In this document: positions 1 through 13,098 of the stretch, piece after piece
Position numbering within the stretch: the stretch's first letter is position 1
Layout of the letters: each line of letters opens with the position of its first letter
NCBI GenBank assembly: GCA_020720785.1
Contig: DYOA01000012.1
Location: forward strand, 924-64,923
From: Leptospira biflexa
GTDB taxonomy: Bacteria; Spirochaetota; Leptospiria; Turneriellales; DYLW01
DNA: 64,000 bases
Direction of reading: 5' to 3'
Translations under genes and position numbers: made by a program
Notes under the pieces: model-generated
What the model saw: only the letters and a program-made list of their open reading frames with translations
Databases searched by the model: none
Told to the model about the DNA's origin: nothing

Positions 1-1
1 A

Positions 2-151
2 GATATGTCTCGCGAGCTTGTGAAAAAACTTTCGGGAGCAGAGCTGGTGGAATTCGAAGGAGTCACGCACATGGGGCCATTGCTGTTGAAGAAAGAGTCT
101 GAGCTGGTCTTTGGGCGGTACGTGGATTTTCTGAAGCAAGTGGATAAATGA
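2..151 (+). CDS. 3' end of a CDS entering from the left edge, probably an alpha/beta-hydrolase C-terminus
   Basis: Frame 2 reads DMSRELVKKLSGAELVEFEGVTHMGPLLLKKESELVFGRYVDFLKQVDK* (TGA 149-151). 'AELVEFEGVTHM' resembles the catalytic-His segment of alpha/beta hydrolases. Only a fragment is visible. Confidence 0.5.
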   Translation, partial: DMSRELVKKLSGAELVEFEGVTHMGPLLLKKESELVFGRYVDFLKQVDK

Positions 152-311
152 AGGCGTCTTTGATAGCGAGGGATGGAGAGTTATCCCGGAAACTATTGGA
201 GCGGAGGAGGGAAACCCGGGACGTTACTATTATTATGTCTCTTCTTTGGGTGGACAAATTTCTTCTATGTGACTAACATCATGGGAAACAAAAAAAGGTG
301 ACTAACCACAA

Positions 312-330
312 GGGATAATTTATTTATCCC
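312..330. promoter_or_regulatory. Perfect 7-bp inverted repeat upstream of recQ, possible operator
   Basis: GGGATAA-tttat-TTATCCC, 45 nt upstream of the likely recQ start. Function is inferred only. Confidence 0.3.
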
Positions 331-374
331 AATAAAGGAAAATTGTAAGAGAATATTATATGGAGGAATCAACG

Positions 375-2399
375 ATGACAAGACAGGAAGCGGAAAACCG
401 TCTCCGGGGGACATTCAATCTTCCGGTTTTTTATGATAATCAATGGGATGCAATTCAGAGAATATTAAATAAGGAGAGGGTGCTGTTGATTGAGAAAACT
501 GGTTTTGGCAAATCCCTGTGTTATCAGTTTCCAGCCACTGTTTTCAGTGGAACCACTGTGATTTTTTCTCCTTTGCTTTCTCTAATGAGAGATCAGGTAA
601 AAAAAATGACCGCATTGGGAATTTCTGCTGCCTGTATCAACAGCGAACAGTTACCGGAAGAAAATCAAAGAATAATGGCAGACGCTGTTTCAGGGAATGT
701 AAAGATATTGTATATTGCTCCGGAACGAATGGAAAACCATGATTGGATCAATATTTCCCGCCAGATCAGTATTTCTATGGTGGTTGTGGATGAAGCTCAT
801 TGCATTTCCGTATGGGGACATGATTTCCGGCCCGCATTCCGAAGAATCATTGATCTTATTAAATTCCTTCCCGCAGATGTTCCGGTGCTGGCCACAACAG
901 CCACCGCAACGAAAAGAGTGGAAAAAGATATTGCGAACCAGATTGGTGGAGGAATTCAGATAATTCGTGGACATTTGATGCGTGAGAATTTAAAGTTATT
1001 TGTTCTTAACGTTGAGAATGACGATGAGAAATTTATATGGCTGGGAAAGGTAATTCCCCGTTTGCCCGGTAATGGAATTATCTACACCGGAACCAGGGCG
1101 GATACAGAAATTTATTCCCATTGGCTGGAAGATTGTGGGATTTCTTCGGTACATTACAGCTCCAAACGAAATTCTGAATCCAGGGTCAGGATAGAAAACG
1201 GTTTTATGGAGAATAAATGGAAGTGTATTGTGGCAACAAACGCCTTGGGCATGGGAATTGACAAAAAGGATATCCGCTTTATAATTCACACACAGATTCC
1301 CCAATCTCCCATCCATTATTATCAGGAAATTGGGCGGGCTGGAAGAGACGGGGGAAACGCCTATATTATCCTTCTTTATCGTCCGGGGGATAAACGCCTG
1401 CCATTGAGTTTTATCCATACGGCCAAGCCATCCATAAAGGATTACCAGAAAGTAACAGATGCGATAAAGGATGGATTATTGGGAGAAAAAGAAATAACAA
1501 TGCAAAGCGATCTTAAAAAAACGACAATAAGAACTATTCTTGCAGATTTGATGGATGCAGGCATTATCCGCAAAATTCCTGTGGGTAGAAGTTCAAAATA
1601 TGAGTTTATTCCTGGTTCCAAGTCTCTTGATACATCACACTTTGCTGAACTTAAAAAAGTTAAATTAAAGGAATTGGATGACATGGTCAGCTATGTGAAA
1701 ACCACAGAGTCCAGAATGAAGTATTTAACGGATTATCTGGGGGATAGCCAGAATAAAAGTTTCGCCAACTGTGATAACACAGGAGAAAAAAAGATGAGAG
1801 TGGTCACCACACCGGAATGGAGACAAAAACTGGATAAATTCCAGGGGAGTAATTTCCCAATTCTGGAAGTGAAGGCACGGAGATCTCATCTGGTTTCTGG
1901 TATAGCCGGATCTTACTATGGGGTGACGGATGTGGGCAAGGTTATCCATAAATGTAAATACCAAAACGGAGGAGACTTCCCGGATTCTCTTGTAGCATTG
2001 ACAGTGAATGCATATCAGGAAAAACTAAAATCAGAAAATTTTGATCTTATCCTTTACGTACCATCGACAGTATCCGGGGATCTTGTGAAAAACTTCGCGG
2101 AGAAGGTCGCAGACCGCATTCATCTGCCCGTATCACACAAGCTTAAAAAGACAAGAAACACAAGCGAGCAGAAGATATTTATTACCAATTTTCTGAAATC
2201 AAATAATGTGAAAGACGCGTTTACAGTCAGTGACCCATCGGAAGTGGAAGGCAAAAGCATTTTACTGATTGACGATATATTTGACAGTGGAGCAACCATA
2301 AAGGAAATTGCTGCGATGCTCACAAAAATGGGAGCCACAAAGATTGCCCCTTTGGTTATCGCAAAAACGGTGGGAGGAGATCTGGCAGATGATACATGA
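375..2399 (+). CDS. recQ: RecQ-family ATP-dependent DNA helicase fused to a C-terminal ComF-like phosphoribosyltransferase domain
   Basis: Walker A KTGFGKSLCYQ, VVDEAHCISVWGHDFRP, ATNALGMGIDK and YYQEIGRAGRDG motifs. The C-terminal LLIDDIFDSGAT is a PRPP-binding loop. Start set at ATG 375 (GGAGG at 362-366); the ORF track opens at 360. Confidence 0.93.
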   Translation: MTRQEAENRLRGTFNLPVFYDNQWDAIQRILNKERVLLIEKTGFGKSLCYQFPATVFSGTTVIFSPLLSLMRDQVKKMTALGISAACINSEQLPEENQRIMADAVSGNVKILYIAPERMENHDWINISRQISISMVVVDEAHCISVWGHDFRPAFRRIIDLIKFLPADVPVLATTATATKRVEKDIANQIGGGIQIIRGHLMRENLKLFVLNVENDDEKFIWLGKVIPRLPGNGIIYTGTRADTEIYSHWLEDCGISSVHYSSKRNSESRVRIENGFMENKWKCIVATNALGMGIDKKDIRFIIHTQIPQSPIHYYQEIGRAGRDGGNAYIILLYRPGDKRLPLSFIHTAKPSIKDYQKVTDAIKDGLLGEKEITMQSDLKKTTIRTILADLMDAGIIRKIPVGRSSKYEFIPGSKSLDTSHFAELKKVKLKELDDMVSYVKTTESRMKYLTDYLGDSQNKSFANCDNTGEKKMRVVTTPEWRQKLDKFQGSNFPILEVKARRSHLVSGIAGSYYGVTDVGKVIHKCKYQNGGDFPDSLVALTVNAYQEKLKSENFDLILYVPSTVSGDLVKNFAEKVADRIHLPVSHKLKKTRNTSEQKIFITNFLKSNNVKDAFTVSDPSEVEGKSILLIDDIFDSGATIKEIAAMLTKMGATKIAPLVIAKTVGGDLADDT

Positions 2400-3336
2400 A
2401 GAAGCGGCATACTGGATCACCTTATCCCATATTCCCTCTTGGAAATATTCCAGGGTAAACAATGTCGTTACAAAGTTTCACCATCAAGCTGGAATTTCCA
2501 TTAAGGATTTTTTTCAATTGGCGGAAAGTGACTGGAGACTGGAGTATGATTTCTCGGAAAAAGAGATTGCGGATTTACAGGCAGCCAAAGGCCAATTGGC
2601 GGGGAATGCTTTCCTGGCTGAATCCCTTTTTAACCAGGGCATGGAAATAATACCAATAATAGATTCTTTGTATCCCAAAAGTCTCAAAGAAAACCTAAAA
2701 ATGTCCAGTGCCCCCCCGGTTTTGTATGCCAAAGCAAATCTGGAAATGCTGAAAGAAAAATCCATTGCCATAGTGGGTTCCCGGGAAGCGGACGCGATCT
2801 CCCTGGAATTTACGGATTCAGTCGCAAAAAAGGCAAGCAACGACTACAAGGTTGTTGTGAGTGGATTTGCGAAAGGGGTGGACCGGCGGGCGTTGGATGC
2901 CGCCATCAAAAACAATGGTCAGAGTATTATTGTGCTTCCGCAGGGAATCAACACGTTTGGTTCCGGATTCAAGAGTTATTACCGGCAGATACAGGATGGA
3001 ACTGTTCTGGTGGTGAGTACATTTCATCCTAATGTTCCGTGGAAAGTGGAGCTGGCCATGGCCAGGAATGCGATCATCTATGGGCTTGCGGATGAAATTT
3101 ATGTGGCCCAATCGTCCGAAAAAGGCGGTACCTTGTCCGGGGTGATCCAGGGATTGAAGGCAAACCGGAGAATATTTATCCGCAAACCGGATCCGGGTGA
3201 AATAAATGCCAATGAAATTCTCATACAGAAAGGAGGTGTTCCTGTGGACAGAAATGGGGTGGAGATAGCTGTGGAGAATCCAGAAAAAAAGGGACAAAAA
3301 ACATCCGGAGTGCAGCTGGAGCTTAACCTGGAGTGA
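2389..3336 (+). CDS. dprA: DprA/Smf (SLOG superfamily) DNA-processing protein
   Basis: YP..L...PPVLY, IAIVGSR, VVSGFAKGVD and AMARNAIIYGLA motifs. ATG 2389 follows GGAGG at 2373-2377 and overlaps the recQ stop (2397-2399). Confidence 0.88.
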   Translation: MIHEEAAYWITLSHIPSWKYSRVNNVVTKFHHQAGISIKDFFQLAESDWRLEYDFSEKEIADLQAAKGQLAGNAFLAESLFNQGMEIIPIIDSLYPKSLKENLKMSSAPPVLYAKANLEMLKEKSIAIVGSREADAISLEFTDSVAKKASNDYKVVVSGFAKGVDRRALDAAIKNNGQSIIVLPQGINTFGSGFKSYYRQIQDGTVLVVSTFHPNVPWKVELAMARNAIIYGLADEIYVAQSSEKGGTLSGVIQGLKANRRIFIRKPDPGEINANEILIQKGGVPVDRNGVEIAVENPEKKGQKTSGVQLELNLE

Positions 3337-3461: not shown

Positions 3462-4253
3462 ATGGTAAAGACCGAATCCATGGAAGAAGCAATCCGGAAA
3501 AAGAAAAAAGAAAGGGGATATGCGTTTATCCCGTATCTGGCGATGGATGATCCGGATATGGATAAGACCCTGGAAATTGCGGATTTATATATTAAGCGGG
3601 GAGCGGCGTCCATTGAGCTGGGTCTTCCCTTTACGGATCCCGTGGCCGATGGCGTCATTTTGCAAAGAGCCTTCCGGAGGATTTTAAAAAAACCTTTCAA
3701 AATCTCCCGCGTATTGACCACGCTACGGAAGCTTTCTGCGGCCCATCCGGGTTTCCCCTTCATTGTCATGGGGTACGCAAATATATTTTACCAGTACGGG
3801 ATGGAGAAAATCTCCCTGGATATGGAACGTGCCGGGGTGCGGGCTCTGGTGGTTCCGGATCTTCCTTTTGAAGAAAAGTTGCGGAATCCTCAGATTGCAG
3901 ACTCATCCATTCCCTGGGTTAATTTTATCACATTATCCAGTTCGCCGGAAAGAATCCGTACCGTGGTGGAGAAAAGCCATGGATTTATTTATCTTGTTTC
4001 CGTGAAGGGGATTACCGGAACCACAGAGCCGGACTTCCGGGAAGTGGAGCCTCTGGCACGGCAGATTAAAGCGGTGAAAGACATTCCGGTGATTATTGGT
4101 TTTGGCATAAAGAGTAAAAAACAGATAGCGGAGATTCTCCGCTTTTCCGACGGATTCATCATCGGCTCCCGGTTTCATGAAATTATTGAAAAAATTCCGG
4201 ATAAGGATATTCTGCCGGCACTGTCCAGGGAGCTGGACCTCATTCTCTTATAA
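3462..4253 (+). CDS. trpA: Tryptophan synthase alpha subunit
   Basis: FIPYL, IELGLPFTDPVADGVILQ (catalytic Glu/Asp), GFIYLVSVKGITG, IGFGI and DGFIIGS motifs. Confidence 0.93.
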   Translation: MVKTESMEEAIRKKKKERGYAFIPYLAMDDPDMDKTLEIADLYIKRGAASIELGLPFTDPVADGVILQRAFRRILKKPFKISRVLTTLRKLSAAHPGFPFIVMGYANIFYQYGMEKISLDMERAGVRALVVPDLPFEEKLRNPQIADSSIPWVNFITLSSSPERIRTVVEKSHGFIYLVSVKGITGTTEPDFREVEPLARQIKAVKDIPVIIGFGIKSKKQIAEILRFSDGFIIGSRFHEIIEKIPDKDILPALSRELDLILL

Positions 4254-4263
4254 AGCAGGAGTT

Positions 4264-4575
4264 ATGGAAAATAAAGAAAAAGAAATATCACGCACAATTC
4301 TCGCAGCCACCCAGAAACCGGTGGTGGGGGAGGCGGGTTTGACCTCCGCCTGGAGGACAGAAAAACCGGTTATCAATCATGAAGCCTGCATTGTTGTCCG
4401 CAAAAATAAGGAAGTATGCCATTTCTGCTGGATGTACTGTCCGGAAGCCACCATAAAAAAAACCATACCCGTGGAAATTGATTATGATTACTGCAAGGGT
4501 TGCGGTATCTGTGCCTATGAGTGCCCCCATAATGCCATCCTCATGGTGGATGAGTCCAGGGAGATTTCCCCATGA
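4264..4575 (+). CDS. porD: 2-oxoacid:ferredoxin oxidoreductase delta subunit (2x[4Fe-4S])
   Basis: WRTEKPVI, C...CHFCWMYCP and IDYDYCKGCGICAYECP motifs. ATG 4264 follows GGAG. Overlaps porA by 4 nt (4572-4575). Confidence 0.88.
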   Translation: MENKEKEISRTILAATQKPVVGEAGLTSAWRTEKPVINHEACIVVRKNKEVCHFCWMYCPEATIKKTIPVEIDYDYCKGCGICAYECPHNAILMVDESREISP

Positions 4576-5825
4576 GCAAGCCGGAAAAACTGGTGATCAC
4601 CGGTAACCATGCCGCCGCTTATGCTGCGAAAAGTGCGGATGTGGATGTGGTGGCGGCGTATCCCATCACGCCGCAAAGTCCGGTGGTGGAGAAAATCTCT
4701 TTATTTGTGGAAAGCGGCCAGATGCCCCGCACCCGGTATATCACCGTGGAAAGCGAACAGTCTGCCATCGCGGCGGTGATTTCGGCCTCCGCCACGGGTT
4801 CCCGGGTATTTACCGCAACCAGTGCCAATGGCCTCGCGTACATGTTTGAGCAGTTGAACTGGGCGGCGGGAAACCGGCTTCCCATCGTCATCTGTGTGGC
4901 CACTCGTGCTCTGGGTGCTCCCTGGAGTGTGTGGTCGGATAACCAGGACGCGTTTTCCGTCCGGGATTCCGGTTTTATGCAGATGTATGCGGAGGACAAC
5001 CAGGAAATATATGACACGGTTCTCATGGCGTATAAAATCGCGGAGGATAAACGCGTGTATCTCCCCATTCTGGTGAACTATGATGGTTTCATTTTATCCC
5101 ATACCCTCATGCCGGTATCCATTGAGCCGGAGGAAAAAATCCGGCGTTTCCTTCCGGATTATGTGCCGCATATCCATCTGACCGATTTTGATCATCCACA
5201 GGGGGTATCCCCCGTGACCACTCCGGACCCGATAGCGAGGGCAGGGGAAAAAACGGCTCCGGGTTATTTTGAGTACCGTTATTCCATGCAGAAGGCTCTG
5301 GAAAATTCCCTGGATGTGATCCGGGAAACCGGGGAGACCTTCCGGGAAATTTTCCATCGGTCGTATGGAAACGGAATTTATAAGGAATACCGCACGCAGG
5401 ATGCCGAATTGTTTCTCTTTGCGGTGGGCAGTCTGGCCTCGGAGAGCCGCAATGTGGTGGATTCCCTTCGCGAACAAGGGATTCCGGCCGGGTTAATTTC
5501 TCTGAAGGTATTCCGTCCTTTTCCCGTGCAGGAAATGCGGGAAGCATTCCATAATGCCAAACTCATCGTGGTGTTTGATCGGAATATTGGTTATGGATAT
5601 GAAGGGATCCTCGCCTATGAATTGAAGGCCGCACTGTATGGAAAGGAAAATCCGCCTTTGATAAAGGGGTTCATCGCCGGGCTGGGCGGAAGGGATGTAA
5701 CGGAAAATATCATGACGGAGGGCGTGCTCAAGACCAGGGACGCTTTCCAGAGTGGGTCCACCGCCCAGATGGATTTACCCCGGACAGATTATCTGGGTCT
5801 TTTTCTGGACAAACTGGAGTTATAA
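4572..5825 (+). CDS. porA: Pyruvate/2-oxoacid:ferredoxin oxidoreductase alpha subunit
   Basis: GNHAAA, AAYPITPQS, VESEQSA, RVFTATSANGL and AGLGGRD motifs. Confidence 0.93.
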   Translation: MSKPEKLVITGNHAAAYAAKSADVDVVAAYPITPQSPVVEKISLFVESGQMPRTRYITVESEQSAIAAVISASATGSRVFTATSANGLAYMFEQLNWAAGNRLPIVICVATRALGAPWSVWSDNQDAFSVRDSGFMQMYAEDNQEIYDTVLMAYKIAEDKRVYLPILVNYDGFILSHTLMPVSIEPEEKIRRFLPDYVPHIHLTDFDHPQGVSPVTTPDPIARAGEKTAPGYFEYRYSMQKALENSLDVIRETGETFREIFHRSYGNGIYKEYRTQDAELFLFAVGSLASESRNVVDSLREQGIPAGLISLKVFRPFPVQEMREAFHNAKLIVVFDRNIGYGYEGILAYELKAALYGKENPPLIKGFIAGLGGRDVTENIMTEGVLKTRDAFQSGSTAQMDLPRTDYLGLFLDKLEL

Positions 5826-5827
5826 AA

Positions 5828-6757
5828 ATGGGTATTAAACTGAATGAAATTCCTTTAAAAGAATATGTCCTGCCGGGGACCCGGCTCTGTTCCGGTTGCG
5901 GGCTCCAGCTTGCGTACCGGATGGCTCTGAAAGCTCTGGGAGACCGTACCATCGTCACCATCCCGGCATCCTGTTCCACGGTGATGCATGGAATGCAGGG
6001 TTTCAGTGCGGTGAATATTTCTGTTCTGCATACCACGTTTGAGACCACGGCGGCGTCCGCCTCCGGCATCGCTGCTTCCCTGAAAGCACGGGGGATTGAG
6101 GATGTGAATGTGGTGGCCTGGGCGGGCGATGGCGGAACGGCGGACATCGGTATCCAGGGATTGAGCGGTGCGGCGGAGCGTCAGGACGATTTTATTTATG
6201 TATGTTATGATAATGAATCCTATATGAATACCGGGACGCAGAGATCCGGAGCCACTCCCAAAGGGGCCATGACCACCACCACGCCGGTCGCGGGAAAAAC
6301 CCAGTGGAAAAAGGATGTGGTAAAAATCATGGAAGCCCACCAATTATCCTATATTGCCACCGCCAACGCGTCGTATCCGCAGGATCTGATGGATAAAATC
6401 CAGAAGGCAAAAGAATTCCGTGGGCAGGGGGTTCGTTATATCCATATTTTCAGTCCCTGTCCTCCGGGTTGGGGCTATAAAACCGAAGAAACCATTGAGA
6501 TGGGCCGGCTGGCCAACCAGACGGGATTGTGGCCGCTCTTTGAAAAAATCCATGGAAAACTGAGTATCAGCCCCGCGTCCGCCCGGTATATGCAGAAGGA
6601 AAACCGGAGAGATCTGCGGGAATATCTGGGAAAACAGGAACGATTTTCCCAGATTAAAGAAGAACAAATTGTTGCATGGGAAAAGCACATTGATTATACC
6701 TGGAAAAAAATGGAGCTGGAATTGACGATGCAGGAAGAGTTGGGAAGCTATGTCTGA
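5828..6757 (+). CDS. porB: Pyruvate/2-oxoacid:ferredoxin oxidoreductase beta subunit (TPP-binding)
   Basis: LCSGCG, PASC, AGDGGTADIGIQGLSG...YDNESYMNTG (TPP motif) and SPCP motifs. Confidence 0.93.
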   Translation: MGIKLNEIPLKEYVLPGTRLCSGCGLQLAYRMALKALGDRTIVTIPASCSTVMHGMQGFSAVNISVLHTTFETTAASASGIAASLKARGIEDVNVVAWAGDGGTADIGIQGLSGAAERQDDFIYVCYDNESYMNTGTQRSGATPKGAMTTTTPVAGKTQWKKDVVKIMEAHQLSYIATANASYPQDLMDKIQKAKEFRGQGVRYIHIFSPCPPGWGYKTEETIEMGRLANQTGLWPLFEKIHGKLSISPASARYMQKENRRDLREYLGKQERFSQIKEEQIVAWEKHIDYTWKKMELELTMQEELGSYV

Positions 6758-8321
6758 ATTTTCTATGCCGGAAACCCGCTTGGTGGGGAAGAATATCCGG
6801 ACAGTCCGGGAACATAAAAAACTGGAGATATCCCAGGTTTCTGCCCGGTCTTCCATTCCGGAAGAGGAGTTAAACCAGATTGAAAATGGTCTCCGGGATC
6901 CGTCCATCTCCGAACTGTTAAAAATTGCCACTACTCTGGATACATCCATCGGCATTCTGGTAATGGGAAAAGAAGCGGAAAACCTGAAAAAAATGGTGGT
7001 ACGTTCCCAGGAGAGAATTCCGGTCACTTTTGGGAAAACCGGAAAGAAAACCCGCTATGAAAGTCTGTCAGCGGATGAGGGGAACCGCCACATGGAGCCT
7101 TTTTTGGTGGAAATTTTTCCGGAAAAAGATCCAGCCTGGAGTTCCTATCCGGGGGAGGAATTTCATTACGTGCTTTCCGGGGACATCATATTGCATCTGG
7201 ACAATGAGAAACTGGAGCTGAAAGCTGGGGACGCTGTTTATTTTGATTCCTCCGTTCCGCATCGAATGCAATCCAGAGAAAATACGGCAAAAATAATCTC
7301 CGTCGTGTATCGTGCTCCCCGGAAAAATTTTACCGCAAAGCCCATGTTCCGCAGCCGTAAAATGGATAATATCATACAAGCCGCCCGATTGATCAAGAAT
7401 ACCAGTATGGGGATGGTCTGTCCGGATGTTTCCTCCATGGTGGCCATAAACCGTGCCCTGGAGGAAGGGATTCTGGAAAAAGCCTATTTTATTGGCTGCC
7501 GGGATACCATCCACCGAATGGTGAAACGCACCATAAACAATGTAAATCGGGTGGAGATTGTGGATGATTATCCGGCGGAGAATCTGGAGATGGAACATAT
7601 AAACGCCGCGGATTATGGAGTGCGTCTGGTGAAAGAAGGGAAAATCCAGATGCTCATGAAAGGAAATATCAATACCGCCACCTTCAGCCGCCCGGTCACC
7701 CACCCCCGGTATGGGATTGGGAATGGAAGAAGGCTTTCTCTGGTGTGTACGTTTGATCTTCCCAATGTGGACCGCCTGATATTTCTCACGGATCCGGGGG
7801 TTAATCCATCCCTTCTGCGGCATGAGAAGCCGGAAAGTGCACGGGATATTATTGAAAATGCGGTGTTTGCCGCACGGGCAATGGGGGTCTCCTATCCCAA
7901 AGTGGCCATTCTGGACGCCAATGAAGTTCCCTCCACCAATGTTCCGTCCACGCTGATGGCCCGGAAAATTGCTGCCATGCCCATTGAAAATGCGGTGGTG
8001 GAAGGCCCGCTGTCCTATGATCTTTCTCTTTATGAAGATGCCGTACGCAAAAAGCGGCTGAAAAATTCCGCAGTGGCGGGAAAAGCGGATATCCTGGTGG
8101 TTCCCCGCATAGAAGGCGGCAATTTTATTTATAAATCCTGGGTGATGACCTCCGGGGCGGAAGTGGCTAATATTGTCATTGGTGCAAGGGTTCCCATTAT
8201 TCTGACCTCCCGGAGTGATAACCAATCCACAAAATTTCTGAATATCTGTGCGGGAGTCCTGAACGCCCAATTAATCCACAAAGAAAATATTTCTAACGAA
8301 AAATCCGGTAGCGGAGCATAA
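6750..8321 (+). CDS. Fusion: XRE-family HTH + cupin + phosphate butyryl/acetyltransferase (PTA_PTB)
   Basis: N-terminal HTH (IRTVRE...LNQIENGLRDPSISELLKIA), cupin (MEPF...GEEFHYVLSG...GDAVYFDSSVPH), then PTB motifs (LMKG, TDPGVN, VEGPLSYD, GKADILVVP, GN, PIILTSRSD). Overlaps porB by 8 nt. Confidence 0.88.
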   Translation: MSEFSMPETRLVGKNIRTVREHKKLEISQVSARSSIPEEELNQIENGLRDPSISELLKIATTLDTSIGILVMGKEAENLKKMVVRSQERIPVTFGKTGKKTRYESLSADEGNRHMEPFLVEIFPEKDPAWSSYPGEEFHYVLSGDIILHLDNEKLELKAGDAVYFDSSVPHRMQSRENTAKIISVVYRAPRKNFTAKPMFRSRKMDNIIQAARLIKNTSMGMVCPDVSSMVAINRALEEGILEKAYFIGCRDTIHRMVKRTINNVNRVEIVDDYPAENLEMEHINAADYGVRLVKEGKIQMLMKGNINTATFSRPVTHPRYGIGNGRRLSLVCTFDLPNVDRLIFLTDPGVNPSLLRHEKPESARDIIENAVFAARAMGVSYPKVAILDANEVPSTNVPSTLMARKIAAMPIENAVVEGPLSYDLSLYEDAVRKKRLKNSAVAGKADILVVPRIEGGNFIYKSWVMTSGAEVANIVIGARVPIILTSRSDNQSTKFLNICAGVLNAQLIHKENISNEKSGSGA

Positions 8322-9240: not shown

Positions 9241-9780
9241 CTAATAGTGAATCAGGGAAAATGCTTTGGTATGGGAATGCTTTTCCAGCTTCTTCCTCCC
9301 CTGCAAAAAATCCAGTTCAATCAGAAAATGTACGGAGACAACCTCCGCACCGGATTTCTGAACCAGTCGGATGCTGGCATCGGCTGTGCCACCGGTGGCC
9401 AGAAGATCATCAATAATGGCCACTTTATCCCCGGCTTCGTACGCATCCTGGTGAATTTCCAGAGAATCCGTCCCATATTCCAGAGCATAATCTTCTCTGT
9501 ATGTTTTATAGGGGAGCTTTCCCTTTTTTCGTATGGGTGTGAATCCCAGATTCAATTCATGGGCCACCACCGTACCCAATATAAACCCACGGGATTCAAT
9601 CCCCGCGATTCCGGTGACGTTTTTATCAATTGTGGATACAAACCATTCCACCATTGTTTTCAGTAATTGGGGGTTCTGGAGTACCGGGGTGATATCCTTA
9701 AACTGGATGCCGGGTTTGGGAAAATCCGAAACATTCCGGATGGCTTTTTCAATGATTTCACTGTATTTCTTCTCTGGCAT
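9241..9780 (-). CDS. apt: Adenine phosphoribosyltransferase
   Basis: DFPKPGIQFKDITP, GIESRGF, RKKGKLP, YALEYG and IDDLLATGGT motifs. Confidence 0.97.
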   Translation of the reverse strand: MPEKKYSEIIEKAIRNVSDFPKPGIQFKDITPVLQNPQLLKTMVEWFVSTIDKNVTGIAGIESRGFILGTVVAHELNLGFTPIRKKGKLPYKTYREDYALEYGTDSLEIHQDAYEAGDKVAIIDDLLATGGTADASIRLVQKSGAEVVSVHFLIELDFLQGRKKLEKHSHTKAFSLIHY

Positions 9781-9809
9781 ATTTCCCTCTTAAATTTGAT
9801 ATTAAAATT

Positions 9810-10724
9810 TTAATTCTGCGGCAGTTCTCCCAGCATTTTTTTCCAGATGGGAAAAAAGCTTTCCTGTTCCACGGACAACTCTGTGTGGGTCAGATGAAAT
9901 TTAAACATGTAGTTTTTCACTTCCATAATGTGGCGATCTACTTCCCGGATAATCTGCTGGAATTCAGTTCCATAATAAAAAATCAGCCAGCAGTTTAATC
10001 CCAAGGCAAAAACATAGCCTTCATTCCGGATTTGGTTTTCAAAATTTTCCTTGATAATATCCAGGGCGTCTTCTGTATAAAAATCGCCAGAGGAATGGAT
10101 GAAAAGCTTGTAGTTTACAAATTTAAGCCCCACAACCTGGACGCGACCATTTTCTTTGATCTTTGTATTGACGGTGGTCCGTATATACTGGTCAATTTCT
10201 TCCGGATAAGAAGTAAATCTTTCATCCGGTAGAAAAATTTCCGGCAGATAATAATTTTTGAAAACCGTTTCCAACCGGTGCAGGATGCTTTCTTCTTTTT
10301 CACGGGCAATAAAGACCACCCCCAGAAGGTAGTGGTTATCCCGGAAACTGATCTTCTTTTTCCAAAATAGATGGGAATATGCCTTATGGGTTATTTCTGA
10401 ATTTTCTTCCAGTTCATTTTTATCTGTAAATTCCAATTCGTCATGGAGAATCCGGGCAACTTCCGGAAGCGGTTTGAACTGGAACATGGTTTTTTCTTCT
10501 TTCAGATCATAGATGAAAGCGTAGATAATTCCTTCATTCATGCTTTCAAATGTGATATAATAATCAAAATAGCGGACGGCTCTTTTTTTACGGAAATCCT
10601 GAAGTTTGGATTCCCAATGACGCAACAGATGGTACACCATCTCATTGTCAGCGGTATTATCCTGTACGCATTTCTTCAGATAGGCCAGGTTGATGGAATT
10701 AAAATCGCCGTAATTCTGTTTCAT
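9810..10724 (-). CDS. Hypothetical protein with a probable degenerate GGDEF-like C-terminal domain
   Basis: 304-aa ORF coupled to lipA (ATGA overlap). The C-terminal segment aligns by eye to the GGDEF pattern, with GLNCW at the signature position. Confidence 0.6.
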   Translation of the reverse strand: MKQNYGDFNSINLAYLKKCVQDNTADNEMVYHLLRHWESKLQDFRKKRAVRYFDYYITFESMNEGIIYAFIYDLKEEKTMFQFKPLPEVARILHDELEFTDKNELEENSEITHKAYSHLFWKKKISFRDNHYLLGVVFIAREKEESILHRLETVFKNYYLPEIFLPDERFTSYPEEIDQYIRTTVNTKIKENGRVQVVGLKFVNYKLFIHSSGDFYTEDALDIIKENFENQIRNEGYVFALGLNCWLIFYYGTEFQQIIREVDRHIMEVKNYMFKFHLTHTELSVEQESFFPIWKKMLGELPQN

Positions 10725-11593
10725 GGGGTGGATATTTTCCTTAAAGTGTTTTCCGCCATGTAGCTACTGCGCGTATACACGGATACCTCAACCCCGGAAA
10801 AATCAAGGGATTGGGCAAAAGCCCGTATTTCATCCAGCTCCGGGGTTTGGTAGTATTTTGCAACCGGTACATTCATGGTGTCAGGTTGAAAGTATTGTCC
10901 TATAGTCAGAATGTCCACCCCATTTTTTTTTAAAATCCGGATGGTCTCCCGGATTTCCTCCGGGGTTTCTCCCAGACCCAGAAGAAATCCGCTTTTTAAC
11001 AGAATTTTCTCAGCGGCTTTTTCCCGGAAATATCCGAGTACATCCAGACTACGCTGGAAATCTGCCTGCGGACGTATGACAGGGGAAAGACGTTCCACTG
11101 TTTCCACATTATGTGCCAGAACATGAGGATGGGCTTCCAAAATGACATCCAGATAATCCGGCCGGCCGTGGAAATCCGGGATCAGGACTTCCACACTTTT
11201 CCCCAGACCCCGGAGGTCCTGGATGATACGGGCGAAGTGTTCCGCCAGAAATATTTCGTCATCGTCCCGGGTCACAGAGGTGATCACTACATGCCGTAAC
11301 CCCAGAAGCAGAACGCTTCGGATGATTTCTTCCCGCTCCCTTTGGGATTCCCGGAATAGCGGCCTGCCTGTCCTGATGTTACAAAAGCGGCAGTTGCGGG
11401 TGCAAATATCTCCTCCTATTAAAAAGGTGGCTACCCCGTTTGCGGAGCATTCTCTCTGGTTGGGACATCGGGATTCTTCGCATACTGTGTGTAAATGGTT
11501 AAAATGAATATTGTGGACAATTCCTTTTCCGGAATTTTTTTCAGAAAGAAATGGAATTTTCTTTTTTATGGGAATATATTCAGGATTTCTCAT
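10721..11593 (-). CDS. lipA: Lipoyl synthase
   Basis: CEESRCPNQREC (CX4CX5C), CTRNCRFC (radical SAM), HNVETV, LTIGQY and RSSY motifs. Confidence 0.95.
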   Translation of the reverse strand: MRNPEYIPIKKKIPFLSEKNSGKGIVHNIHFNHLHTVCEESRCPNQRECSANGVATFLIGGDICTRNCRFCNIRTGRPLFRESQREREEIIRSVLLLGLRHVVITSVTRDDDEIFLAEHFARIIQDLRGLGKSVEVLIPDFHGRPDYLDVILEAHPHVLAHNVETVERLSPVIRPQADFQRSLDVLGYFREKAAEKILLKSGFLLGLGETPEEIRETIRILKKNGVDILTIGQYFQPDTMNVPVAKYYQTPELDEIRAFAQSLDFSGVEVSVYTRSSYMAENTLRKISTP

Positions 11594-12962
11594 TTTCCAG
11601 AGCTTTCTTCATGGAGGATTCCAGCAGCCGGTCGGTCAGCATGGATTCAAAATCTTCTCCGGAAACAATCAGGTTTTCCAAAGCGGATATTTTAGTCCGG
11701 ATCAGTGCCCGCCAGTTTGTGTAACCAGGAAAATACTGCGGTGCCCGCAACCGGACAACTTTGAACAAGGATGCATCTGCCTTGAGTCCTGTGAATCTCT
11801 TCAATTCCCTTTTCAGAATATCCTGTAATTCATCATCAGAGAATAAATCATGCTCTCCCAGAAGATAGGATTTAGTAAAAAAGGATTCCTTATGGTGATA
11901 TTGTGGAAATAAATTGGACATGAGGGTAACCCGGGACAGGGGGGATTTCTCTTTTCGCGGGATCAGAATATGACCTCCATCCAGACGGATTTGTTTGGCT
12001 GGATACACAGAACCGATGACGGAATAGGAATTGTATTTCATTTTTTTTAATTCACCGGAAAGCTCTTTATCCGCTTCTTTGATAATGGCAGAAAGATAAT
12101 CGGCGTCAATGTCCGTAAAAACCATATCAAACGGTCCGATCTTATTGTTCTTTGTATGCAATGTCCATGTTTTTGCTTTGGACGCAAGAGAGGAAATCTT
12201 TGCTGATGTAAATTTTGTTCCATGAATCTTCAGATAATCCCGCAGGCCTTTCATTAAACCGGGCATCCCTTCTTTCAGAACGATGGGATTATCGTAGTAG
12301 AAAGCTCTGGGTGTCAATCCATCGGCGGGAAGGGAATATGCCTGGGCAAGAGAAAGCCATTCATTATTTCTTTTCTCTATGGCAGATTCCACGGCTTTTT
12401 CCACTTTAAGATTTTGGTTGATATACTGATAGATATCCGGAAAGACCGCGGCAAATTCTGTGTTTTCTGCTTCTGAAAAAAGGAATCCACGGGTAAAGGC
12501 ACTGGTGAAATATTCGGAAAAGTTTTCCATGAAAAGCGTTTTTGTGGCTTCAAAGAAAGACATGGAATCCCAAAGAGAAAAAACCTTCTGGTAATTGGAA
12601 AGAGTCTTGATGCTTTCTGTTAAAAACAGGATGGAGTTAAACCGGAAGCCGGATTTGGATCGGGGAACTTTGGACGGAATAAGATCTTTGACAATATAAT
12701 TGGTTTGTGCATCTTTCCCAGCCTCCTGGGCATGGAGGGAAATCTCCGGTTCGCGGAGAATCAGTTCCAGAGCGGGATTCTTCTGGAATATCATATCATG
12801 GTGAAGATCTGCCTGGAATGGTCCCAGTTCGGTCAGATGTCCCGGATTTTGCGGGAGCGGGTTTTCAAAAAATTCAATGTGGGTTTGGGGATTTTTTTTC
12901 AGATAAAAATACGCAAAACTCAATCCGGAAATGCCGGACCCAATGATCGCAATTCTGCTCAT
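11580..12962 (-). CDS. hemY: Divergent FAD-dependent protoporphyrinogen/coproporphyrinogen oxidase-like protein
   Basis: MSRIAIIGSGISGLSFAY dinucleotide-binding motif, LKEGMPGL, 'GHILIPRKE' and 'PQY..G' resemble HemY. Start set at ATG 12962. Sequence is divergent. Confidence 0.6.
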   Translation of the reverse strand: MSRIAIIGSGISGLSFAYFYLKKNPQTHIEFFENPLPQNPGHLTELGPFQADLHHDMIFQKNPALELILREPEISLHAQEAGKDAQTNYIVKDLIPSKVPRSKSGFRFNSILFLTESIKTLSNYQKVFSLWDSMSFFEATKTLFMENFSEYFTSAFTRGFLFSEAENTEFAAVFPDIYQYINQNLKVEKAVESAIEKRNNEWLSLAQAYSLPADGLTPRAFYYDNPIVLKEGMPGLMKGLRDYLKIHGTKFTSAKISSLASKAKTWTLHTKNNKIGPFDMVFTDIDADYLSAIIKEADKELSGELKKMKYNSYSVIGSVYPAKQIRLDGGHILIPRKEKSPLSRVTLMSNLFPQYHHKESFFTKSYLLGEHDLFSDDELQDILKRELKRFTGLKADASLFKVVRLRAPQYFPGYTNWRALIRTKISALENLIVSGEDFESMLTDRLLESSMKKALENEKS

Positions 12963-13098
12963 GGGATAGGCAGAATATACAATACGGGGCGTAAAGATAT
13001 ATCCACGCATTTAATTCTTTACCCCGGATTCCGGAAAGGGTTTTTGTCAATGGACGGAATATTGCAATGGGAAAAACTGAAAAAGGAATGAAATCGAT

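Follow-up and report, generated by a model that had tools for sequence, protein, structure and literature searches.

A probable PsyrTA (RqlHI)-type module with a shortened antitoxin on an accessory cassette of an uncultured Leptospirales-like spirochaete

A 64,000-nt stretch of spirochaete DNA (GenBank assembly GCA_020720785.1, contig DYOA01000012.1, positions 924 to 64,923 of the forward strand; hereafter the window) carries near its left end two overlapping genes, the first encoding a RecQ-like helicase fused to a ComF-like phosphoribosyltransferase (PRTase) and the second a DprA-like protein. The pair is probably a toxin-antitoxin or abortive-infection module of the PsyrTA (RqlHI) type, borne on an accessory cassette in an uncultured Leptospirales-like spirochaete. 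PsyrTA/RqlHI is already catalogued, and the window copy is a divergent member with a shortened antitoxin and an unusual host. A psyrTA pair of Pseudomonas syringae was reportedly described by Sberro in 2013. PsyrTA is listed with other two-gene toxin-antitoxin systems that have a part in phage resistance, and transformation with a psyrA deletion was not achieved (Millman 2022 preprint). The first-pass annotation of this DNA treated the helicase as a new addition to a PRTase/DprA pair; helicase-bearing pairs of this kind are a published system (PMC4670107; Millman 2022 preprint) and not a new elaboration of ShosTA. Gene 1 has the full RqlH/PsyrT architecture, in which a RecQ-like helicase whose ATPase motifs are intact is followed by an RqlH-type linker and then by a ComF-like PRTase, and gene 2 is a DprA-like protein of the PsyrA/RqlI type; everything past this architecture is inferred from homologues. 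For annotation, the value of the assignment is that a pair labelled 'RecQ family helicase' and 'DprA' by pipelines would be recognized as a toxin-antitoxin or defence cassette in a little-studied lineage of spirochaetes.

Organization and identification of the gene pair

The cassette comprises the following features, with positions given in the window.

174-178: left TGGAG microhomology; alignment with the sister genome covers window 1-178, breaks off and continues from the right junction
179-374 (+): cassette leader, part of the indel; segment not in sister genome DYLW01000001.1
375-2399 (+): psyrT (rqlH-like), 674 aa, predicted toxin, RecQ-like SF2 helicase plus ComF-like PRTase (PADLOC, Pfam, motifs, AlphaFold2)
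375-1394 (+): helicase core of PsyrT, residues 1-340, with GFGKS (K46, nt 510-512), DEAH (residues 139-142, nt 789-800), TAT and QEIGRAGR
1395-1811 (+): RqlH-type linker and degenerate RecQ zinc module (predicted winged-helix-like part, residues ~354-411; zinc module, residues 425-468)
1812-2399 (+): ComF-like PRTase domain, residues ~480-674 (Pribosyltran; TIGR00201 comF)
2372-2379 (+): Shine-Dalgarno-like GGGAGGAG for psyrA, within the 3' end of psyrT, 9-11 nt before ATG 2389
2389-3336 (+): psyrA (rqlI-like), 315 aa, predicted antitoxin (PADLOC, Pfam, homologue alignment, AlphaFold2/Foldseek)
3317-3321: right TGGAG, right edge of the indel

The open reading frame (ORF) of gene 1 spans 360-2399 (+) and offers an upstream ATG at 360 as well as an internal one at 375; the latter, yielding 674 aa, is preferred because its N-terminus (MTRQEAE...) agrees with the consensus of homologues. 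GGAGG lies at 362-366, 8 nt 5' of this ATG. The DprA-like ORF runs on the same strand from ATG 2389 to its stop at 3334-3336 and encodes 315 aa. Since the psyrT stop is at 2397-2399, the genes share 2389-2399, and the start of psyrA 11 nt before the end of psyrT suggests translational coupling. The fusion of RecQ to a ComF-like PRTase, its 11-nt overlap with a DprA-like gene and the GGAGG before each had all been described in the first-pass annotation, and are borne out by the ORF calls and Pfam.

A defence-profile check of the pair with PADLOC returned PsyrT and PsyrA. Gene 1 matches the PsyrT profile PDLC03928 over its full length (E = 2.8e-253; residues 2-669 against profile positions 2-688 of 689), while gene 2 matches the PsyrA profile (E = 9e-72) ahead of that of ShosA (6e-34), covering profile positions 36-311 of 398. 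The pair shares with PsyrTA/RqlHI the two-gene order and overlapping junction, a toxin composed of a RecQ-like helicase and a C-terminal ComF-like PRTase with a DD-x-x-D-S-G loop for phosphoribosyl pyrophosphate (PRPP) and no HRDC domain, and a DprA-like antitoxin with N-terminal helical and Rossmann domains. In described systems, rqlH always lies 5' of rqlI and often overlaps it (PMC4670107). The window pair differs in being only 33% (PsyrT, aligned end to end) and 36% (PsyrA, over the DprA domain) identical to the pair on an Escherichia coli IncF plasmid, in a 315-aa PsyrA without the putative helix-turn-helix (HTH) module, in the replacement of three of four zinc-module cysteines and in its spirochaete host.

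These profiles, together with RecQ and DprA scores below the equivalog cut-offs, uphold the earlier view of a conflict or anti-phage system distinct from a housekeeping RecQ with a competence DprA. Gene 1 belongs to the RecQ family in the broad sense (TIGR00614, 313 bits, above the cut-off of 220; NCBIfam), but identity with canonical RecQ (TIGR01389, 355 against 640 bits) and of gene 2 with canonical DprA (TIGR00732, 108 against 191 bits) was rejected. The likeness to the canonical proteins lies in the RecQ-family helicase core and the DprA Rossmann fold, whereas the window pair lacks both HRDC and the DprA winged helix and has a PRTase added. DpdF was likewise rejected, given that its PADLOC profiles match the helicase core only (e.g. 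residues 3-370) and the NCBIfam DpdF model scores 178 against 550 bits. No other dpd genes were found by PADLOC among 10 scanned neighbours, which gave generic HTH matches only, though no dpd-specific search was made.

The 'DprA + PRTase pair' from prophage hotspots mentioned in the first-pass annotation is ShosTA, which comes from a P2 prophage hotspot (Rousset 2022, PMC9122126) and is represented by structures 8zva and 9vzo. ShosTA also joins a PRTase toxin to a DprA-like antitoxin, the PsyrA model is structurally closest to ShosA, and the ShosA and ShosT profiles match the corresponding domains of the window pair. However, ShosT bears an N-terminal pyrophosphatase-like hydrolase and no helicase, whereas the window PRTase is fused to a RecQ helicase; moreover, ShosA does not bind ShosT, whereas RqlI does bind RqlH. 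Identity with ShosTA was rejected, the ShosT profile covering residues 548-666 only (profile positions 84-212 of 237) and the N-terminal 340 residues being a RecQ helicase. ShosT toxicity requires PRPP binding and perturbs purine metabolism, ShosA binds to both single-stranded DNA (ssDNA) and RecA and is unstable owing to its own C-terminus, and the system is triggered by host shut-off through T7 Gp0.7 (PMC11961720, PMC12961424).

The helicase-PRTase protein PsyrT

Pfam recognizes DEAD (8e-25), Helicase_C (4e-20) and Pribosyltran (3e-8, residues 574-661) in gene 1, together with a marginal RecQ_Zn_bind barely over the cut-off (1.7e-5), and gives no match to HRDC. All catalytic motifs of psyrT are intact, including Walker A (GFGKS), DEAH, TAT, QEIGRAGR and the PRPP loop DDIFDSGAT. 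The loop region ILLIDDIFDSGAT occupies residues 629-641 (nt 2259-2297), and its LLIDDIFDSG aligns to LLVDDIVDSG of the E. coli plasmid homologue. The AlphaFold2 model (mean predicted local distance difference test score, pLDDT, 80) consists of a RecQ-like core, a predicted winged-helix-like linker and then a PRTase fold; its best match in the PDB by Foldseek is the E. coli RecQ core 1oyw (470 columns, 3.8 Å). This layout resembles that of Mycobacterium smegmatis RqlH, defined as a RecQ-like helicase that has a ComF/PRTase C-terminal domain and no HRDC (PMC3378886), in its ATPase core, specific linker, zinc-type module and PRTase-like C-terminal domain. The mycobacterial protein differs in that it keeps its tetracysteine and stands alone without RqlI, whereas the window protein has lost the tetracysteine and has a partner gene.

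At the zinc-ligand positions, PsyrT has S446, F463, C466 and T469, retaining one of the four cysteines, while the IncF plasmid homologue has the tetracysteine (C...CGKCENC). The loss is common to the 119 closest PsyrT homologues but not to the E. coli plasmid protein. Judged by these alignments, it is variation at the level of a clade (Bacteroidota-type). The PADLOC profile still matches the window protein over this region.

Several promoter-like sequences occur in and before psyrT. The leader contains a weak sigma70-like site at 251-279 and, beside it, two copies of the direct repeat GTGACTAAC (269-277 and 298-306) 29 nt apart, which could serve as an operator. Within psyrT, a perfect sigma70 consensus lies at 1258-1285 (+; TTGACA-16-TATAAT, 12/12) over the codons for IDKKDIRFII. 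It was rejected as a promoter, not being kept at the DNA level in homologues, and is probably a by-product of codon choice.

The DprA-like protein PsyrA and its shortened C-terminus

Gene 2 matches the DprA family DNA_processg_A of Pfam (6e-40, residues 83-282), with a sub-threshold match to SLOG. The protein consists of an N-terminal helical SAM-like domain (residues 3-80) and a DprA/SLOG Rossmann domain (83-290), both of which are seen in the AlphaFold2 model (mean pLDDT ~80). Foldseek places this model closest to ShosA (8zva) and Streptococcus pneumoniae DprA (3uqz), then to LOG and MoCo-carrier SLOG folds. The lack of a C-terminal winged helix remarked on from the sequence is corroborated, as Pfam finds no DprA_WH in gene 2 and residues 297-315 are disordered in the model.

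Most close PsyrA homologues are 379-390 aa long and continue beyond the Rossmann domain with a linker, a module of ~60-70 residues and a terminal Q-x-T-L-F that is conserved. Natural short forms of 315-336 aa, which are a minority, have dropped the module and kept the tail. In the homologue alignment, the window PsyrA lacks both, and no remnant of the missing module was found anywhere in the 64-kb window. The module has been called a putative HTH in RqlI (PMC4670107); Pfam does not recognize DprA_WH in it among close PsyrA homologues, and that of the E. coli plasmid homologue gives only a weak, sub-threshold DprA_WH match. RqlI 1-320, which is without the C-terminal HTH, is still fully active in neutralizing RqlH (PMC4670107). 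Because the short PsyrA resembles this construct, the window pair is expected to work as a toxin-antitoxin pair.

Accessory status and origin of the cassette

Judged by its SecA, which is 63-72% identical to sequences from Spirochaetia, Leptospirales and Turneriella metagenome-assembled genomes and 52-55% identical to those of Leptospira, the host belongs with uncultured Leptospirales-like spirochaetes. On both sides of the pair, a sister genome (DYLW01000001.1; 91.5% nucleotide identity) is colinear with the window, and it lacks window 179-3321 (3.1 kb). The junction at this empty site has a single copy of TGGAG in place of the two in the window, and the last four psyrA codons and stop (3322-3336) lie in sequence common to both genomes. 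The cassette is thus accessory, being present here and missing from the same site in the sister genome. With the nearest PsyrT relatives lying outside the spirochaetes, the empty site also points to a foreign ancestry: the nearest non-self PsyrT is only 64% identical, and the named sources among the best 120 PsyrT matches are Bacteroidota, Smithella and Kapabacteria, with no spirochaete.

Comparison of the occupied and empty sites indicates that the 3.1-kb cassette behaves as one accessory unit, with no integrase or transposase. Neither was present among the called neighbours, and no tRNA or Rfam matches and no terminal inverted repeats were found around the pair. The indel may reflect either an insertion into the window lineage that clipped psyrA or a microhomology-mediated deletion in the sister lineage; a GTDB scan with which to polarize the indel gave one close genome only, and a metagenome scan with the TrpA-like neighbour gave nothing nearer than 35% identity. 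The window itself is matched by NCBI contig CDCNAG010000057.1 (99.9% identity) and by a JGI contig, both of which end 1.3-1.5 kb upstream of the pair, and the pair sequence, very few changes aside, is shared by at least three independent assemblies.

Breaks in assembly and similarity recur upstream of the pair. Three independent assemblies (L001 1-310; L003, the sister, 1-260; L169 1-200) end 1.1-1.5 kb upstream of it, and the two species cease to be similar ~120 nt upstream of the hydrolase gene. A repeat or second variable region upstream of window position 1 is suggested by these breaks.

Base composition had been put forward as a sign of foreign origin, on the ground that part of recQ lacks the CCGG signature of core genes. 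The counts were exact (0 sites in 1441-1740 and 9 in 5101-5400 on recounting), but the argument fails once base composition is normalized. CCGG is ~4.4-fold over-represented across the window relative to base composition (727 sites against 167 expected), yet 40 of 637 sliding 300-nt windows contain none. Base-normalized observed/expected ratios (O/E) are 3.6 for psyrT and 4.0 for psyrA, compared with 3.5 for porA and 3.3 for porB (per-gene range 3.1-6.7), such that the pair carries the same ~4-fold excess as its neighbours. Accessory status rests on the empty sister site in place of this argument. The pair probably did not arrive recently, since its O/E is the same as in the neighbouring genes and in the sister genome (4.15), whereas values of 0-1.5 are seen for homologous pairs from other hosts. 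Unlike the window copy, the psyrTA of Smithella (L063 10001-13164) looks like a recent acquisition, with no CCGG in 3.2 kb and a GC content of 0.36 in a locus with an O/E of 2.7 and a GC content of 0.41.

Proposed mechanism and competing explanations

Work on homologues provides the most likely mechanism. RqlH of E. coli F11 expressed alone causes SOS induction, filamentation and mutagenesis, for which the PRTase domain and residues of the PRPP pocket are required, and helicase-dead mutants are more harmful; RqlI binds and neutralizes RqlH (PMC4670107; Russell & Mulvey 2015). Toxicity through the PRTase together with neutralization by a bound partner is established for this E. coli F11 pair only. 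By analogy, the PRTase domain of PsyrT would be the toxic part, requiring PRPP binding and causing DNA damage, SOS induction and filamentation. PsyrA would bind PsyrT and, as a DprA-like ssDNA binder, hold the toxin harmless, with the ATPase activity of the helicase adding further restraint. Phage infection may then disturb this balance, for example when host shut-off depletes the antitoxin, or in response to ssDNA of the phage or to DNA damage, upon which the released PRTase activity would halt replication of cell and phage alike. This departs from the earlier suggestion of a helicase that senses or loads ssDNA while the PRTase/SLOG part processes nucleotides, as the literature assigns the PRTase as toxin, the DprA-like protein as antitoxin and the helicase as a restraint (PMC4670107).

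A number of observations weigh against assigning the pair to PsyrTA in this sense. PsyrT does not have the tetracysteine zinc module of M. smegmatis RqlH, three of its four cysteines being replaced, and a construct of the mycobacterial protein without the zinc domain was insoluble (PMC3378886). About 87 C-terminal positions of the PADLOC profile are absent from the window PsyrA, the regulation or triggering of which may be different, or lost, given the missing C-terminus. None of the 10 scanned neighbour proteins matches a PADLOC model other than generic HTH, and a native-host study of one E. coli PsyrTA detected no protection against the phages tested.

Some of these points bear on whether the pair is instead a selfish addiction module or decaying remnant, kept since loss of the antitoxin is lethal, giving no phage protection and having lost its control through the truncated PsyrA. 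The PsyrA without its C-terminal module and tail, with last codons drawn from flanking sequence, would be in keeping with this, as would the lack of defence genes among the scanned neighbours, the sister species that has no pair and no visible consequence of its absence, and the outcome of the native-host test. However, both frames are intact with all catalytic motifs kept, and at least three independent assemblies contain the same sequence with very few changes. A CCGG signature like that of the host suggests that the pair has been resident for a long time without decaying, and HTH-less RqlI is a fully active antitoxin; addiction or decay appears unlikely. A DNA-repair or recombination module, in which the RecQ-like helicase and a DprA-like RecA loader act on host DNA and possibly replace a missing canonical RecQ, is very unlikely. 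Precedents are a repair role suggested for RqlH of mycobacteria and a cooperative model put forward by Russell & Mulvey. In addition, RqlH of M. smegmatis, which has no RecQ, is a genuine 3'-5' helicase (PMC3378886), ShosA binds RecA and promotes recombination (PMC11961720, PMC12961424), and the window, Smithella and Kapabacteria pairs sit amid housekeeping or metabolic genes. Yet the absence of the pair from the same locus of the sister genome indicates that the lineage does not have it as a core function, and the closest relatives of the pair belong to other phyla. Homologues reside on a conjugative plasmid and in islands of type I restriction-modification (R-M) and Abi genes, and loss of both rqlH and rqlI did not impair fitness, either in vitro or in mouse models of infection (PMC4670107).

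It is extremely improbable that the pair forms part of the natural-competence machinery, with the ComF-like PRTase and DprA serving in DNA uptake. ComF and DprA both act in transformation, and the TIGR00201 comF and dprA profiles do match. However, the comF match is partial, which led to the rejection of that identity, and both scores are far under their cut-offs (39 against 233 bits for comF and 108 against 191 bits for dprA). Further, no com genes lie nearby, the PRTase is fused to a RecQ helicase, unlike ComF proteins, and the PsyrT and PsyrA profiles fit far better.

Within the PsyrTA assignment, it is conceivable, though quite unlikely, that the pair is a natural separation-of-function allele, in which the indel junction removed the PsyrA module and tail and left an antitoxin that neutralizes but is differently triggered, or untriggerable, beside a RecQ-PRTase without zinc. 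By analogy with the C-terminus of ShosA, the lost module and tail might govern antitoxin instability or autoregulation. If so, comparison with full-length homologues would inform how PsyrTA is switched on, and could help to show whether DNA is acted on directly by the PRTase tethered to the helicase. The naturally short antitoxin and zinc-less helicase module are small but usable leads.

Homologous pairs and genomic context

The psyrT-then-psyrA order, with an overlap or a gap of no more than 3 nt, recurs in Smithella, Terrimonas, Kapabacteria, an E. coli IncF plasmid and IMG/VR contigs, the surroundings of which are as follows.

L066 3792-16472: Terrimonas pair, within a type I R-M locus, with hsdS on one side and hsdR on the other
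L068 2694-12773: pair of a conjugative IncF plasmid of E. coli, likewise flanked by hsdS and hsdR in a type I R-M locus
L089 377-13723: pair of an IMG/VR contig, with AbiJ-like, ADP-ribosylglycohydrolase, WYL and type I R-M genes on its flanks
Smithella and Kapabacteria pairs: solitary amid housekeeping genes

Association of RecQ-PRTase/DprA-like pairs with type I R-M is thus repeated across phyla. Co-localization with defence islands, raised at the outset as a check, holds for the Terrimonas, E. coli plasmid and IMG/VR pairs but not for those of the window (10 neighbours scanned), Smithella and Kapabacteria. Full-length RecQ-PRTase genes are also carried on six plasmid records, including two records of a haloarchaeal plasmid, and none were found in INPHARED phage genomes. 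The RqlH-specific C-terminal half recruits 343 clusters at 50% identity (E<=1e-10).

Neighbours of the pair in the window include two alpha/beta hydrolases, a TrpA-like gene, a 2-oxoacid:ferredoxin oxidoreductase, an HTH-cupin-phosphotransacylase fusion and a PRTase/radical-SAM operon. The last of these (9241-13010, -) encodes a stand-alone PRTase (179 aa), a 304-aa protein without a family, a radical SAM protein (290 aa) and a 476-aa protein. The first three were scanned with PADLOC and have no match, and the 476-aa protein, compared with Pfam alone, gives no more than weak FAD/NAD-binding matches. The segment at 3462-8321 contains the TrpA-like gene, porD/porA/porB and the HTH-cupin-phosphotransacylase fusion. 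Among GTDB species representatives, the nearest relatives of PorA after that of the sister genome (97% identity) are from Promethearchaeota (Asgard; 55-64%), followed by Planctomycetota (~50%), a distribution that may reflect inter-domain transfer.

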